Below, in pieces: positions 27,775 to 36,965 of a DNA stretch of 64,000 bases (position 1 is the first letter of the stretch; every line of letters starts with the position of its first letter). The position numbers and the translations under genes were made by a program. The DNA is from Escherichia coli. GTDB taxonomy: Bacteria; Pseudomonadota; Gammaproteobacteria; Enterobacterales; Enterobacteriaceae. Below the pieces are notes generated by a model that was not told where the DNA came from, did not search any database, and saw only the letters and a program-made list of their open reading frames with translations. The stretch lies in the NCBI RefSeq assembly GCF_003334765.1, contig NZ_QOWT01000002.1; one strand, 5' to 3'.

Positions 27775-27791
27775 CTTAAGGTTAAGTTAAT
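27775..27791 (+). promoter_or_regulatory. PmrA (BasR) box upstream of arnB
   Basis: CTTAAG-gttaa-GTTAAT direct repeat of hexamer half-sites with 5-bp spacer, about 80 bp upstream of arnB start, in the ais/arnB divergent intergenic region. Confidence 0.6.
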
Positions 27792-27871: not shown

Positions 27872-29029
27872 ATGGCGGAAGGAAAAGCAATGTCAGAATT
27901 TTTGCCTTTTTCGCGACCAGCAATGGGCGTGGAGGAACTCGCTGCAGTTAAAGAGGTTCTCGAATCCGGTTGGATCACAACCGGTCCGAAGAATCAGGCG
28001 CTTGAGCAAGCTTTTTGCCAGTTGACGGGAAATCAGCATGCCATCGCGGTCAGTTCAGCCACCGCCGGAATGCATATCACGCTAATGGCGTTGAAAATTG
28101 GCAAGGGCGATGAAGTGATTACGCCTTCCCTGACCTGGGTTTCAACCCTCAATATGATTTCCTTGTTGGGTGCAACGCCGGTAATGGTGGATGTCGACCG
28201 CGATACGCTGATGGTCACGCCTGAAGCTATCGAGTCAGCCATTACGCCACGCACTAAAGCCATCATTCCGGTGCATTATGCCGGTGCGCCAGCAGATATT
28301 GACGCCATTCGCGCCATTGGCGAACGTTACGGCATCGCAGTTATCGAAGATGCTGCCCATGCCGTCGGTACGTATTACAAAGGGCGACATATTGGCGCAA
28401 AAGGTACCGCTATTTTTTCATTTCATGCCATTAAAAATATTACCTGTGCTGAAGGTGGCCTGATTGTAACTGATAATGAAAACCTTGCCCGCCAGCTACG
28501 GATGCTGAAATTTCACGGTCTGGGTGTCGATGCCTATGACAGACAAACCTGGGGCCGTGCACCGCAGGCTGAAGTCTTAACACCGGGCTATAAGTACAAT
28601 CTGACCGATATTAACGCCGCGATTGCCCTGACACAGTTAGTCAAATTAGAGCACCTCAACACCCGTCGGCGCGAAATTGCCCAGCAATATCAGCAAGCAC
28701 TGGCAGCTCTCCCCTTTCAGCCATTAAGCCTTCCCGCCTGGCCGCACGTTCACGCCTGGCATCTGTTTATTATTCGTGTCGATGAACAACGTTGTGGTAT
28801 CAGTCGCGATGCGTTGATGGAAGCGTTAAAAGAAAGAGGCATTGGTACCGGGTTACATTTCCGCGCCGCTCACACACAAAAATATTATCGCGAGCGTTTT
28901 CCCACGCTGTCGTTACCGAATACCGAATGGAATAGCGAACGCATCTGTTCTTTGCCGCTGTTCCCGGATATGACTACCGCCGATGCCGACCATGTCATCA
29001 CAGCCCTTCAGCAACTCGCAGGACAATAA
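27872..29029 (+). CDS. arnB: UDP-4-amino-4-deoxy-L-arabinose--oxoglutarate aminotransferase (385 aa)
   Basis: [42 protein letters not shown]...; DegT/AHBA-synthase family. Start ambiguous between ATG 27872 and ATG 27890 (the latter has the stronger GGAAGGA SD). Confidence 0.93.
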
Positions 29030-30000
<971 letters not shown>

Positions 30001-30001
<1 letters not shown>

Positions 30002-31983
30002 TGAAAACCGTCGTTTTTGCCTACCACGATATGGGATGCCTCGGTATTGAAGCCCTGCTGGCTGCCGGTTACGAAATTAGCGCCATTTTTACCCATACTG
30101 ATAATCCCGGTGAAAAAGCCTTTTATGGTTCGGTGGCTCGTCTGGCGGCGGAAAGAGGCATTCCGGTTTATGCGCCGGATAACGTTAATCATCCGCTGTG
30201 GGTGGAACGCATTGCCCAACTGTCGCCAGATGTGATTTTCTCTTTTTATTATCGCCATCTTATTTACGACGAAATTTTGCAGCTCGCTCCCGCAGGTGCA
30301 TTTAATCTGCATGGTTCGCTGTTACCAAAATATCGTGGTCGCGCGCCGCTGAACTGGGTGCTGGTCAACGGTGAAACGGAAACTGGCGTTACATTGCACC
30401 GAATGGTGAAACGTGCCGATGCCGGGGCCATTGTGGCGCAACTGCGCATTGCCATTGCGCCAGACGATATCGCTATTACGCTGCATCATAAATTGTGCCA
30501 TGCCGCGCGCCAGCTACTGGAACAGACATTACCCGCCATTAAACACGGTAATATTCTGGAAATCGCCCAGCGCGAAAACGAAGCCACCTGTTTTGGTCGC
30601 AGAACGCCGGATGACAGTTTCCTTGAATGGCATAAACCGGCATCCGTACTGCACAACATGGTACGTGCCGTTGCCGATCCGTGGCCGGGTGCCTTCAGCT
30701 ATGTTGGCAATCAGAAATTCACCGTCTGGTCGTCGCGTGTTCATCCTCATGCCAGCAAAGCACAGCCGGGGAGCGTGATTTCTGTTGCGCCACTGCTGAT
30801 TGCCTGTGGCGATGGCGCGCTGGAAATCGTCACCGGACAGGCGGGCGACGGCATTACTATGCAGGGCTCGCAATTAGCGCAGACGCTGGGCCTGGTGCAA
30901 GGTTCACGCTTGAATAGCCAGCCTGCCTGCACCGCCCGACGCCGTACCCGGGTACTCATCCTCGGGGTGAATGGCTTTATTGGCAACCATCTGACAGAAC
31001 GCCTGCTGCGCGAAGATCATTATGAAGTTTACGGTCTGGATATTGGCAGCGATGCGATAAGCCGTTTTCTGAATCATCCGCATTTTCACTTTGTTGAAGG
31101 CGATATCAGTATTCATTCCGAATGGATTGAGTATCATGTCAAAAAATGTGATGTCGTCTTGCCGCTGGTGGCGATAGCCACGCCGATTGAATATACCCGC
31201 AACCCGCTGCGCGTATTTGAACTCGATTTTGAAGAGAATCTGCGCATTATCCGCTACTGCGTGAAGTACCGTAAGCGAATCATCTTCCCGTCAACTTCAG
31301 AAGTTTATGGGATGTGTAGCGATAAATACTTCGATGAGGACCATTCTAATTTAATCGTCGGCCCGGTGAATAAACCACGCTGGATTTATTCGGTATCAAA
31401 ACAATTACTTGATCGGGTGATCTGGGCCTATGGCGAAAAAGAGGGTTTACAGTTCACCCTCTTCCGCCCGTTTAACTGGATGGGACCACGACTGGATAAC
31501 CTTAATGCAGCGCGAATTGGCAGCTCCCGCGCTATTACGCAACTCATTCTCAATCTGGTAGAAGGTTCACCGATTAAGCTGATTGATGGCGGAAAACAAA
31601 AACGCTGCTTTACTGATATTCGCGATGGTATCGAGGCGTTATACCGCATTATCGAAAATGCGGGAAATCGCTGCGACGGTGAAATTATCAACATTGGCAA
31701 TCCTGAGAACGAAGCGAGCATTGAGGAACTGGGCGAGATGCTGCTGGCGAGCTTCGAAAAACATCCGCTGCGCCATCATTTCCCACCGTTTGCGGGCTTT
31801 CGCGTTGTCGAAAGTAGCAGCTACTACGGCAAAGGATATCAGGACGTAGAGCATCGTAAACCGAGCATCCGCAATGCCCACCGCTGCCTGGACTGGGAGC
31901 CGAAAATTGATATGCAGGAAACCATCGACGAAACGCTGGATTTCTTCCTGCGCACCGTTGATCTTACGGATAAACCATCATGA
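30001..31983 (+). CDS. arnA: bifunctional UDP-glucuronic acid decarboxylase / UDP-Ara4N formyltransferase (660 aa)
   Basis: Track ORF 30001..31983; N-terminal formyltransferase plus C-terminal SDR decarboxylase with [10 protein letters not shown] Rossmann motif; TAATG overlap with arnC. Confidence 0.96.
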
Positions 31984-32870
31984 CCAAAGTAGGCTTACGC
32001 ATTGATGTCGATACCTTTCGTGGCACCCGTGAAGGCGTGCCGCGTCTGCTGGAAATCTTGAGTAAGCATAATATTCAGGCCAGCATTTTTTTCAGCGTCG
32101 GCCCGGACAATATGGGCCGCCATCTCTGGCGACTGGTGAAGCCACAGTTTTTGTGGAAGATGCTGCGCTCAAACGCGGCATCGCTTTATGGCTGGGATAT
32201 TTTACTGGCAGGTACGGCCTGGCCAGGTAAAGAGATTGGTCATGCCAATGCCGATATCATTCGTGAAGCGGCTAAACATCACGAAGTCGGCCTGCACGCC
32301 TGGGATCACCATGCCTGGCAAGCCCGTAGCGGTAACTGGGATCGGCAAACAATGATCGACGATATTGCACGCGGTCTTCGCACTCTGGAAGAGATTATCG
32401 GTCAACCGGTAACCTGTTCTGCCGCTGCGGGCTGGCGTGCCGACCAGAAGGTGATCGAAGCAAAAGAAGCGTTCCATTTGCGCTACAACAGCGATTGTCG
32501 TGGGGCCATGCCGTTCCGTCCATTGCTCGAATCAGGAAACCCTGGCACTGCGCAAATTCCGGTGACCTTACCCACCTGGGATGAAGTGATTGGTCGGGAT
32601 GTGAAAGCAGAAGATTTTAACGGTTGGTTACTCAACCGCATCCTGCGAGATAAAGGCACGCCGGTTTATACCATTCATGCAGAAGTTGAAGGCTGCGCTT
32701 ATCAGCATAATTTTGTGGATCTCCTCAAACGCGCAGCTCAGGAAGGCGTGACATTTTGCCCTTTAAGCGAACTGTTATCAGAGACGTTGCCGCTCGGACA
32801 AGTTGTTCGCGGAAATATTGCCGGACGTGAAGGCTGGCTGGGTTGCCAACAAATTGCGGGTAGTCGCTGA
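31980..32870 (+). CDS. arnD: 4-deoxy-4-formamido-L-arabinose-phosphoundecaprenol deformylase (296 aa)
   Basis: Track ORF 31980..32870; polysaccharide-deacetylase-like; ATGA overlap with arnA. Confidence 0.94.
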
Positions 32871-34522
32871 TGAAATCGGTACGTTACCTTATCGGCCTCT
32901 TCGCGTTTATTGCCTGCTATTACCTGTTACCGATCAGCACGCGTCTGCTCTGGCAACCCGATGAAACGCGTTATGCGGAAATCAGTCGAGAAATGCTGGC
33001 ATCCGGCGACTGGATTGTGCCCCATCTGTTAGGGCTACGTTATTTCGAAAAACCCATTGCCGGATACTGGATTAACAGCATTGGGCAATGGCTATTTGGC
33101 GCGAATAACTTTGGTGTGCGGGCAGGCGTTATCTTTGCGACCCTGTTAACTGCCGCGCTGGTGACCTGGTTTACTCTGCGCTTATGGCGCGATAAACGTC
33201 TGGCTCTACTCGCCACAGTAATTTATCTCTCATTGTTTATTGTCTATGCCATCGGCACTTATGCCGTGCTCGATCCGTTTATTGCATTCTGGCTGGTGGC
33301 GGGAATGTGCAGCTTCTGGCTGGCAATGCAGGCACAGACGTGGAAAGGCAAAAGCGCAGGATTTTTACTGCTGGGAATCACCTGCGGCATGGGGGTGATG
33401 ACCAAAGGTTTTCTCGCCCTTGCCGTGCCGGTATTAAGCGTGCTGCCATGGGTAGCGACGCAAAAACGCTGGAAAGATCTCTTTATTTACGGCTGGCTGG
33501 CGGTTATCAGTTGCGTACTGACGGTTCTCCCTTGGGGACTGGCGATAGCGCAGCGGGAGCCTAACTTCTGGCACTATTTTTTCTGGGTTGAGCATATTCA
33601 ACGCTTTGCACTGGATGATGCCCAACATAGAGCTCCGTTCTGGTACTACGTGCCGGTCATCATTGCCGGTAGCCTGCCGTGGCTGGGATTACTCCCCGGT
33701 GCACTGTACACAGGCTGGAAAAACCGCAAGCATTCCGCAACCGTCTATTTGTTGAGCTGGACGATAATGCCGCTGCTGTTTTTCTCCGTCGCTAAAGGTA
33801 AATTGCCCACCTATATTCTTTCCTGCTTTGCATCTCTGGCAATGCTGATGGCGCATTACGCTTTGCTGGCAGCAAAAAATAATCCTCTGGCGCTGCGGAT
33901 TAATGGCTGGATTAACATCGCTTTTGGCGTCACTGGCATTATTGCCACATTTGTGGTCTCCCCGTGGGGACCAATGAACACGCCGGTGTGGCAAACCTTC
34001 GAGAGCTATAAAGTCTTTTGTGCCTGGTCGATTTTTTCGCTATGGGCATTTTTCGGCTGGTACACCTTAACAAACGTCGAAAAGACCTGGCCTTTTGCCG
34101 CGCTTTGCCCGCTGGGGCTGGCGTTGCTGGTAGGATTTTCAATTCCTGACAGAGTTATGGAAGGAAAACATCCGCAATTTTTTGTCGAGATGACACAAGA
34201 ATCACTTCAGCCAAGCCGCTATATTCTTACTGATAGCGTCGGTGTTGCCGCAGGTCTGGCATGGAGCCTGCAACGCGATGACATCATCATGTATCGCCAG
34301 ACAGGTGAGTTGAAATACGGCCTTAATTATCCGGATGCGAAAGGGAGATTTGTCAGCGGTGATGAGTTCGCAAACTGGCTTAATCAACATCGTCAGGAGG
34401 GGATTATTACTCTCGTGCTTTCGGTTGACCGCGATGAAGATATCAACAGTCTCGCCATTCCGCCCGCAGATGCCATCGATCGTCAGGAGCGTCTGGTGCT
34501 GATTCAGTATCGTCCCAAATGA
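32870..34522 (+). CDS. arnT: undecaprenyl-phosphate-alpha-L-Ara4N : lipid A arabinosyltransferase (550 aa)
   Basis: Track ORF 32870..34522; polytopic membrane glycosyltransferase; TGATG overlap with arnD. Confidence 0.95.
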
Positions 34523-34854
34523 TCTGGCTAACATTAGTCTTTGCCAGCTTGCTTAGCGTTGCCGGGCAGTTGTGTCAGAAACAGGCAACCTGCTTTGTGG
34601 CGATAAACAAACGGCGCAAACATATCGTGCTGTGGCTGGGACTGGCGCTGGCTTGTCTTGGTCTTGCCATGGTGCTCTGGCTGCTGGTCTTGCAGAACGT
34701 ACCGGTAGGCATTGCTTACCCGATGTTAAGTCTGAATTTTGTCTGGGTGACGCTGGCTGCAGTAAAACTGTGGCACGAACCGGTATCGCCGCGTCACTGG
34801 TGTGGGGTGGCGTTCATTATTGGCGGCATTGTGATCCTCGGGAGTACGGTGTAA
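34519..34854 (+). CDS. arnE: undecaprenyl-phosphate-Ara4N flippase subunit (111 aa)
   Basis: Track ORF 34519..34854; small 4-TM SMR-like protein; ATGA overlap with arnT. Confidence 0.9.
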
Positions 34855-35240
34855 TGGGCCTGATGTGGGGATTATTCAGCGTCATTATTGCCTCAGTTGC
34901 GCAATTAAGCCTGGGTTTTGCGGCGAGTCATCTGCCGCCGATGACGCACTTATGGGATTTTATCGCGGCTCTGTTAGCTTTTGGCCTGGATGCCCGGATA
35001 CTGTTACTCGGGCTGCTGGGTTATCTGCTTTCCGTTTTTTGTTGGTATAAAACGCTTCATAAACTTGCGCTAAGCAAAGCCTATGCCTTGCTCAGTATGA
35101 GTTATGTGCTGGTATGGATTGCTTCAATGGTACTTCCCGGCTGGGAAGGGACTTTTTCGCTGAAAGCACTACTGGGAGTAGCCTGTATTATGAGCGGGTT
35201 GATGCTGATTTTCCTGCCCACGACAAAACAACGTTACTGA
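34854..35240 (+). CDS. arnF: undecaprenyl-phosphate-Ara4N flippase subunit (128 aa)
   Basis: [36 protein letters not shown]...; ATG at 34854 overlaps arnE stop by 1 nt. Only the 3' part of track ORF 34572..35240 is real. Confidence 0.9.
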
Positions 35241-35500
35241 GTTTTCCCTGCCACTTTACACTGCCGTTCCCACTCATCGGGGCTATAACTGCTTGCCGAG
35301 AGGACTTTCACCGTATGCAGCTTTTCACGATTAATACAATAAAGCGCATTCTGCAAAGGCGAGAGTAAATCCCCCACTTTCACGGCGAAGTCACTCTTCA
35401 CTTCGGCGATCATTTTTATCGCGCCGCCAGCATCGCAGAGCATAAGTACATGTCTGTTATCTTGTTTATTGCAGCACGATTTTTTGACCAGCCATTCCAT
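35234..35500 (-). CDS. pmrD: signal-transduction connector protein PmrD (88 aa)
   Basis: [46 protein letters not shown]...; ATG at 35500; its 3' end overlaps the arnF 3' end by 7 nt (convergent). Confidence 0.9.
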
Positions 35501-35609
35501 TGCATTATCCTGTTTGCTAAGAGTTTTCACATCAATTTACAGATTAACAGATAAACTCTTTATCAACGGCAATGGAATGGCAGAAATGAGAAGTGAAACG
35601 GAGGGTTAA

Positions 35610-36965
35610 TTATTGCTGACGTTGCACCCACTCTTTTAGCGCCTGACGTGAAATTTTAATACCGCCGTTTTTCAGCTCCGGCGGCAGAGTTAGCCAGCGC
35701 ACCGGTTGTTGAAAACGGGCCAGCTTATCTTTCACCCATTCACTAAGATCAACGCTCTCGTGGTCATACTCCATCACCGCCACCGGTCGATGACCAAACT
35801 CCTTGTCGGCAACGGGGACGATAAACACCTGCAAAACCGCAGGATGTGCAGCAATTACGCGCTCGACTTCTTCCGGCTGAATACCCTCTCCGCCACTGAA
35901 GAATAGATTGTCTAAACGTCCGACAATGGTCAGCTTGCCATTATGCATCTCACCGCGATCGCGCGTAGCGTACCAGCCTTCGTCATTAACCAGTGAAACC
36001 AGTTGCCCGTTACGCCAGTAACCTTCTGCCATACTGGCAGCCCGCAGCCACACTTCATTATTAACGATTTTCACTTCCCGACCCGGCAGCGGCGAACCAA
36101 CGTCTGCCAGGCCGTCGGCTTCTTTCGCACACACCGTGGAGGCAAACTCGGTCAGACCATAGCCGCAAAAGCAACGAATCCCCTGCTCGCGCGCCTGTTC
36201 CGTCAACTCGACCGGGATAGCCGCGCCGCCAAGTAACACCGCTTTCAGGGAAACGGAACTACGGTTAACCAGCAAACGCCAGAGTTGTGTTGGCACCAGT
36301 GAAGCGTGAGTACAGCCTGCCAGCATTTGCTCCAATGGCTGTTTATCACGTACCGTCATCCGCGCACCAGCGTATAACCAGCGCCACATAATTCCCTGAC
36401 CGGAGACGTGAAACAGCGGTAAAGAGAGCAACCAATCATCGTGATCGCCAAACGGAATCAGCGATAACACACCTTGCGCACTGGCAAGATGGGCCTGATA
36501 AGTATGGACAGCGGCTTTCGGCAAACCGGTAGAACCCGAGGTCAACGTCATTGAGCACAGACGCGTCGGCTGCCACGTAGCGGCATGTGCGCCTTCAACC
36601 AGCTGAATGTGCAGCGACGTTAATGCCGGAAACGTGTTTTCCCCATCCGGCACCAGAGCAAATTGCAGCGTCAGATTGGGCAGCAATTCTTCAAGCAACG
36701 GTTGCGGCAGCTGAGGGTTCACGGGCAACACCCGCGCCCCGCATTGCAGTAACGCCAGCCAGGCGAGCAGCGTTTGCGGCGTATTCCACGCCCGCAACAT
36801 CACGCCGCTGCCCTCAACCACCCCCTGCACCGCAAATCCGGAGGCTAATTCATCGACGCGAGCACAAAGCTCGCGCCAGTTGAGTTGCTCGTCATTAAGA
36901 CGTAAGGCGATGGTTTCTCCCCGCACTTGCCGCCAGTGACGCCACGGCCAGTCAGAGAAGATCAT
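35610..36965 (-). CDS. menE: o-succinylbenzoate--CoA ligase (451 aa)
   Basis: Track ORF 35610..36965; AMP-binding motif [15 protein letters not shown]. Confidence 0.95.

Follow-up and report, generated by a model that had tools for sequence, protein, structure and literature searches.

In the classical excludons, the opposing effect of one partner on the expression of the other has been proven by experiment. These systems, described in Listeria, consist of neighbouring genes on opposite strands whose transcription overlaps, with possible mutual exclusion by way of interference or RNase III (PMC12288877). For E. coli MG1655, 165 convergent excludons present in at least 50% of 58 transcriptomes have been listed, among them arnF-pmrD, which is named there as a pair of same-pathway partners (Sanmartin 2025, PMC12288877). 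That listing denotes overlap of RNA-seq coverage only, and the p19 dsRNA validation in the same study is given in aggregate only. The list also holds pmrR-basS, a second pair from the PmrAB (BasSR) pathway with convergent overlapping transcription (PMC12288877, Table 1). The published entry concerns the identical locus and the identical idea of overlapping convergent transcripts that we consider here; to it we add the non-conserved tails of the two proteins, the drift of the junction over a range of -7 to +9 nt, the missing terminator hairpin and the Rho-dependent end on the pmrD strand. As in the classical cases, arnF and pmrD are opposite-strand neighbours with antisense overlap of their transcripts, an overlap that can be read from published tables and is moreover logically unavoidable. 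In contrast to the classical cases, this overlap arises simply from 3′ read-through, and reciprocal expression of the two genes is only putative.

In Salmonella, where PmrD is established as the connector between PhoPQ and PmrAB, a site at the level of the promoter is said to account for the repression of pmrD by PmrA-P. Transcription of pmrD promoted by PhoP is repressed by PmrA-P in that organism (Kato 2003, as relayed by Chen 2011, PMC3140997), and active PmrA thereby lowers its own activator PmrD, which is the same logic as that of a putative feedback by transcriptional interference. The passages of Chen 2011 that relay the loop describe it as repression by PmrA-P and not as convergent transcription (PMC3140997). 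The connector role that the earlier note on this DNA had given to PmrD therefore stands for Salmonella, but for E. coli K-12, where PmrD is produced at low Mg2+, a failure of the protein to activate PmrA/PmrB was reported, and the Salmonella-type loop was on that account considered absent from E. coli (Chen 2011, PMC3140997). A later study, in the form in which Blassick 2026 summarises it, found that E. coli PmrD can activate under some conditions. With the literature divided in this way, feedback through PmrD in E. coli itself is uncertain.

Here we report an analysis of the arnF-pmrD junction within a stretch of 64,000 nt of E. coli DNA (the window), which has a K-12-type chromosome around arnBCADTEF-pmrD-menE. 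In the arn-pmrD part, subtracting 2,338,038 from an NC_000913.3 coordinate gives the window coordinate; features are collected in Table 1. Translation of both strands confirmed the 7-nt overlap of the two 3′ ends that had been claimed, with ArnF ending in ...TTKQRY and PmrD in ...AGKTQ. On the opposite strand, the arnF stop falls across the pmrD codons Thr87 and Gln88, and the description of this stop as lying inside the last pmrD codons was thus also correct. Sharing 7 nt and encoding two known proteins, arnF and pmrD form a convergent overlapping pair of coding sequences. Both gene products were identified with NCBIfam equivalog models, ArnF scoring 140 bits against a cutoff of 99 and PmrD 175 bits against a cutoff of 96, and the PmrD of the window is identical in sequence to PDB 2JSO/4HN7. 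The family profile of ArnF covers residues 4-122 of 128, with the TKQRY tail outside, and that of PmrD covers residues 1-85 of 88, with the KTQ tail outside. Since the profiles end at these residues, the heptamer codes for nothing but tail residues beyond the conserved cores. The overlap is set directly by the two stop codons and as such carries no statistical signal.

Table 1. Features of the window around the arnF-pmrD junction and of the corresponding loci in relatives (junction values: negative, overlap; positive, gap).
Feature	Position	Strand	Remarks
PmrA/BasR-box-like direct repeat CTTAAGGTTAAGTTAAT	27775..27791	+	81-97 nt upstream of the arnB ATG
arnBCADTEF operon	27872..35240	+	annotation and ORFs; its transcripts necessarily enter pmrD antisense
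Rho-dependent termination region, best position	34777	-	NC_000913.3 2,372,815; antisense to arnE (PMC7815308)
Candidate Rho loading site	34794..34873	-	most C-rich, G-poor stretch downstream of pmrD; C/G 2.67
arnF CDS	34854..35240	+	128 aa; last gene of arnBCADTEF
Terminator-like match inside arnF	35133..35148	+	about 90 nt before the stop; perfect 6-bp G+C-rich palindrome CTTCCCGGCTGGGAAG, then GGACTTTTTC
Shared segment TTACTGA	35234..35240	both	7 nt; holds both stops
pmrD stop TAA	35234..35236	-	complement of these positions
arnF stop TGA	35238..35240	+	
pmrD CDS	35234..35500	-	88 aa
Terminator-like match inside pmrD	35390..35372	-	
pmrD transcription start	35527	-	NC_000913.3 2,373,565; heads a monocistronic unit (Yan et al. 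2018)
-10-like hexamer TAAATT	35534..35539		upstream of the pmrD start; read from sequence
Weak PhoP-box-like CGTTGATAAAGAGTTTA	35552..35568	-	over the -35 region of the pmrD promoter; 3 mismatches
Segment with two E. coli alleles	35580..35609		menE-pmrD intergenic, upstream of pmrD
menE	35610..36965	-	upstream of pmrD, same strand
Junction, E. coli-like contig L004			-7 nt
Junction, E. albertii			-7 nt; CTACTGA; pmrD stop TAG for TAA, silent in both frames
Junction, S. enterica subsp. diarizonae			-6 nt; TCATGA
Junction, three Citrobacter amalonaticus-group genomes			+3 nt
Junction, fourth Citrobacter genome			+9 nt
Junction, S. enterica subsp. arizonae			not comparable; arnF seemingly frameshifted
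arnF of the arizonae type strain	L012 3256..3626		ORF of only 114 aa
arn deleted, pmrD faces ais	L005 3267..3917		Escherichia sp. MOD1-EC7003
arn deleted, pmrD faces ais	L006 3254..3674		'E. coli' SCPM-O-B-8794
arn deleted, pmrD faces ais	L013 3258..3509		Intestinirhabdus alba
Distant PmrD homologue	L015 630..1936		metagenome contig
IS1A between pmrD and menE	L019 1362..2059		E. coli O80:H26 strain EC-107

A 1.2-kb query across the junction was 100% identical to MG1655, and the locus was found in 5405 of the 5426 complete E. coli genomes. RefSeq MG1655 carries the identical 7-nt overlap (b2258, 2372892..2373278; b2259, complement 2373272..2373538), as does the RefSeq annotation of two E. coli strains that are about 96% identical over the query, and the heptamer itself is unchanged in K-12 and in these two strains. 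The overlap is therefore already in public annotation, just as the idea of overlapping transcription is already in the excludon list (Sanmartin 2025). E. coli has been credited with 663 overlapping adjacent gene pairs, 75 of them convergent (Huvet & Stumpf 2014); within the surrounding 50 kb, arnF-pmrD is the sole overlapping pair among nine convergent ones, the others having spacers of 38-272 nt. Convergent overlap of coding sequences is, in other words, uncommon yet ordinary in E. coli.

Convergent pairs separated by a terminator or a REP-like hairpin share the orientation of arnF-pmrD, and there too two converging transcripts need to be ended. The difference lies in the spacer: of the eight other convergent junctions within these 50 kb, all but one carry hairpins of -16 to -29 kcal/mol, whereas arnF-pmrD has neither spacer nor hairpin. 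Its best 45-nt hairpins reach -10.7 and -9.0 kcal/mol, which makes it the weakest of the nine junctions. With no spacer in existence, there is no G+C-rich hairpin with T/A runs between the stop codons. A scan with the terminator consensus found no terminator at the junction, a search of Rfam gave zero matches there, and RNA folds across it were no more stable than those of shuffled sequences on either strand (z = -0.35 and -0.19). The region did give five terminator-like matches where 1.8 were expected; those lying inside arnF and inside pmrD are weak and were taken as chance, the former consisting of the palindrome entered in Table 1.

Published transcript data place the end of the pmrD-strand RNA well beyond the junction. 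The monocistronic pmrD unit is recorded in the SMRT-Cappable-seq tables (Supp. file 4), and the menBCE units of the same study leave out pmrD (Yan et al. 2018). A Rho-dependent region antisense to arnE has a Rho score of 6.5 (p = 2e-21), with coverage upstream and downstream of 163 and 26 without bicyclomycin (-BCM) and of 298 and 310 with it (+BCM) (Adams 2021 Supp. file 2, PMC7815308). Its best position falls about 457 nt past the pmrD stop, a coarse value given the 800-nt windows of the source dataset (PMC7815308). Because this region, at about 34,777, lies beyond arnF, polymerases on the pmrD strand cross arnF in antisense, and transcription of that strand is stopped by Rho rather than by a hairpin, whatever the exact position. 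Just ahead of the reported position, reading from 34873 to 34794, sits the most C-rich stretch downstream of pmrD, which from its base composition may be where Rho loads. In its C-rich untranslated stretch and its read-through with bicyclomycin, the pmrD-strand transcript resembles many of the Rho regions classed as antisense by Adams 2021 (PMC7815308); we see no difference from these, and it is one of hundreds. The interval 2,372,500-2,373,699 is free of curated Term-seq 3′ ends (Adams 2021 Supp. file 1). The arn operon unit is absent from the SMRT-Cappable-seq tables, which were obtained under standard conditions (Yan et al. 2018). The RNA downstream of arnF holds more C than G (ratio 1.1-1.9), a composition that would be compatible with Rho action.

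These ends bear directly on the proposal that the overlap makes read-through from either gene antisense to the other and so permits interference. Transcription does cross the overlap, but the 7 nt shared by the coding sequences are not what would permit interference: this possibility comes from convergent orientation without spacer or terminator. The arn and pmrD transcripts are antisense to each other over hundreds of nucleotides and not over seven. Since an mRNA of either gene reaches its stop codon only at the distal edge of the heptamer, the shared bases are always part of both messages, and the outcome that was to refute the proposal, both transcripts ending before the overlap, is impossible for translatable mRNAs, each of which must contain its own stop.

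The comparison with relatives rested on an alignment of seven PmrD sequences and on 11 loci, with one genome per species and with Klebsiella and Enterobacter outside the sample. In the junction alignment, indels fall between two conserved motifs, EWER of PmrD and IFLP of ArnF. Across these loci the conserved property is extreme proximity of the two genes, and neither the overlap nor the sequence of the heptamer. In the arizonae type strain, the similarity of arnF to E. coli ArnF is broken into three segments in different frames, through either a frameshift or a sequencing error. In three genomes the arn operon is wholly or almost wholly deleted and pmrD is retained facing ais, and these genomes represent natural separations of pmrD from arn; the PmrD of 'E. 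coli' SCPM-O-B-8794 has a changed C-terminus, being 90 aa long and ending in ...KSANNVVLQ. Distant PmrD homologues were represented by short metagenome contigs only. One of these, with 40% identity and the N-terminus MEWWVKKV, is encoded upstream of a co-directional AMP nucleosidase gene (amn), with no convergent arnF.

The promoters of the two units were also considered, as the earlier note had the arn operon activated through a PmrA box. That box, CTTAAGGTTAAGTTAAT, has one mismatch to YTTAAK-N5-YTTAAK and a position compatible with a promoter, but it is not significant from the sequence alone, as the window contains five matches at this threshold where 3.05 are expected; its function as a PmrA box comes from the literature. 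Similarly, CGTTGATAAAGAGTTTA at the pmrD promoter is not significant alone, the PhoP-box search at 3 mismatches being too permissive to inform, and the GTTTAT half-site is kept in relatives, with TTGTTTA or AGTTTA in all loci. Over the 200 nt that precede pmrD in the window, no PmrA box with up to 2 mismatches to YTTAAK-N5-YTTAAK was found. Some 102-114 nt ahead of pmrD, a PmrA-box-like repeat is present in Salmonella, Citrobacter, E. albertii and two divergent strains of E. coli (loci L002, L003, L004 and L007 at the equivalent position, L012 and L014 at about -102). The menE-pmrD intergenic region accordingly has two alleles in E. coli: the K-12 allele reads CAGCAATAATTAACCCTCC, and the PmrA-box-like direct repeat of E. 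albertii and the two strains of about 96% identity reads GGATTAAGAAATCATTAG. Judged by motif, the PmrA box that a Salmonella-type loop would use in the pmrD promoter thus appears to be missing from the K-12-type allele.

We regard the 7-nt overlap as a by-product of tight tail-to-tail packing rather than a dedicated regulatory device, with a probability of about 0.62, and the heptamer itself is probably incidental. With stop codons that sit in variable tails, substitutions and indels would shift the junction between an overlap of a few nucleotides and a gap, and such drift may well be the origin of the overlap. Without a spacer or an intrinsic terminator hairpin, neither transcript could end between arnF and pmrD; release of the ribosome at the stop codon would leave untranslated C-rich RNA open to Rho, which on the pmrD strand ends the transcript after it has crossed arnF antisense into arnE antisense, as the published region indicates, and on the arn strand the end would presumably lie inside pmrD antisense or further on. 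The arn and pmrD units in this way overlap in antisense over hundreds of nucleotides whenever both are transcribed, in the manner of an excludon, and we estimate that this would change expression at most slightly under most conditions. The drift of the junction, the position of the tails outside the profiles, the lack of a terminator, the Rho-dependent region on the pmrD strand, the monocistronic pmrD unit and the existence of 75 convergent overlaps all count for the by-product reading, as do the occurrences of pmrD without arnF opposite it, in the three arn-deleted genomes and beside amn. That the overlap is an artefact of annotation, with one gene in truth ending or starting elsewhere, has a negligible chance of being right and was rejected, both ends being the first in-frame stop: we found no point in its favour, the 88-aa PmrD is the very protein solved as 2JSO/4HN7, both products exceed their equivalog cutoffs, and the listed pmrD ORF, in reaching upstream as far as a GTG at 35530, bears on the start codon and leaves the overlap untouched. 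Selection on the heptamer itself, through coupling of translation termination or a need for TTACTGA in both mRNAs, is very improbable and was likewise rejected. It could draw on the identity of the heptamer in K-12 and the two strains of about 96% identity and on the 7-nt overlap kept in E. albertii, but comparative data largely refute it: the sequence is CTACTGA in E. albertii and a 6-nt TCATGA in Salmonella, in Citrobacter the genes stand 3 or 9 nt apart, the encoded residues lie outside both family profiles, and ribosomes on mRNAs of opposite strands cannot couple.

Some observations count against a mere by-product. Packing within -7 to +9 nt in Escherichia, Salmonella and Citrobacter could reflect selection for overlapping transcription, arnF and pmrD are functionally linked and on the published excludon list, and the K-12 pmrD promoter, having no PmrA-box-like motif, leaves room for other PmrA-dependent control. 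The alternative built on these points is a functional excludon, in which polymerases induced by PmrA on arn would read across pmrD and its promoter, 290 nt on, and lower pmrD by collision, by promoter occlusion or through dsRNA cut by RNase III, all three routes being putative. The outcome would be a PmrA-dependent negative feedback on the connector, and in the reverse direction PhoP-induced pmrD transcription might dampen arnEF. We consider this rather unlikely, although the convergent genes have no terminator between them, RNA-seq overlap has been published for what is a functionally related excludon pair (PMC12288877), pmrD-strand transcription demonstrably crosses arnF in antisense until Rho acts, the C-over-G composition past arnF offers no obvious strong early stop, tight packing is kept in three genera, and the logic would fit the PmrA repression of pmrD in Salmonella as Chen 2011 relays it (PMC3140997). 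Against it, the listing rests on coverage overlap that is unavoidable once both genes are expressed, and the arn unit is not detected under standard conditions, so that collisions should be rare outside induction. The Salmonella feedback is, as relayed, one of PmrA-P repressing pmrD transcription, K-12 PmrD was reported inactive on PmrA/PmrB, so that the loop may not exist (PMC3140997), and the distant PmrD homologue is encoded at another locus away from arnF. A narrower version, in which arn read-through across pmrD and its promoter in K-12-type alleles provides PmrA feedback in place of a lost repressor site, is improbable.

As it stands, the overlap restates an annotated arrangement together with a hypothesis already in print. 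Should convergent read-through prove to tune pmrD or arnEF, the PhoPQ-PmrD-PmrAB circuit, which controls lipid A modification and polymyxin/colistin tolerance, would gain a cis-acting layer, and the E. coli excludon list, so far largely untested, would acquire a case backed by experiment. The locus is chiefly useful as a well-defined test case: one gene is short, inducers are known for both sides, and there are natural variants with pmrD at another place or with the arn operon deleted.

On a more general level, the window departs from MG1655 (NC_000913.3) in a 6-nt offset that holds from its start to about 3.3 kb (gyrA-ubiG-yfaL region) and in seven single-base differences elsewhere, with zero in the arn-pmrD-menE part. 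The promoter side of pmrD is interrupted in one E. coli genome, that of the O80:H26 strain EC-107, where an IS1A has inserted into the menE-pmrD intergenic region some 60 nt ahead of the pmrD start and probably separates pmrD from its PhoP-dependent promoter.
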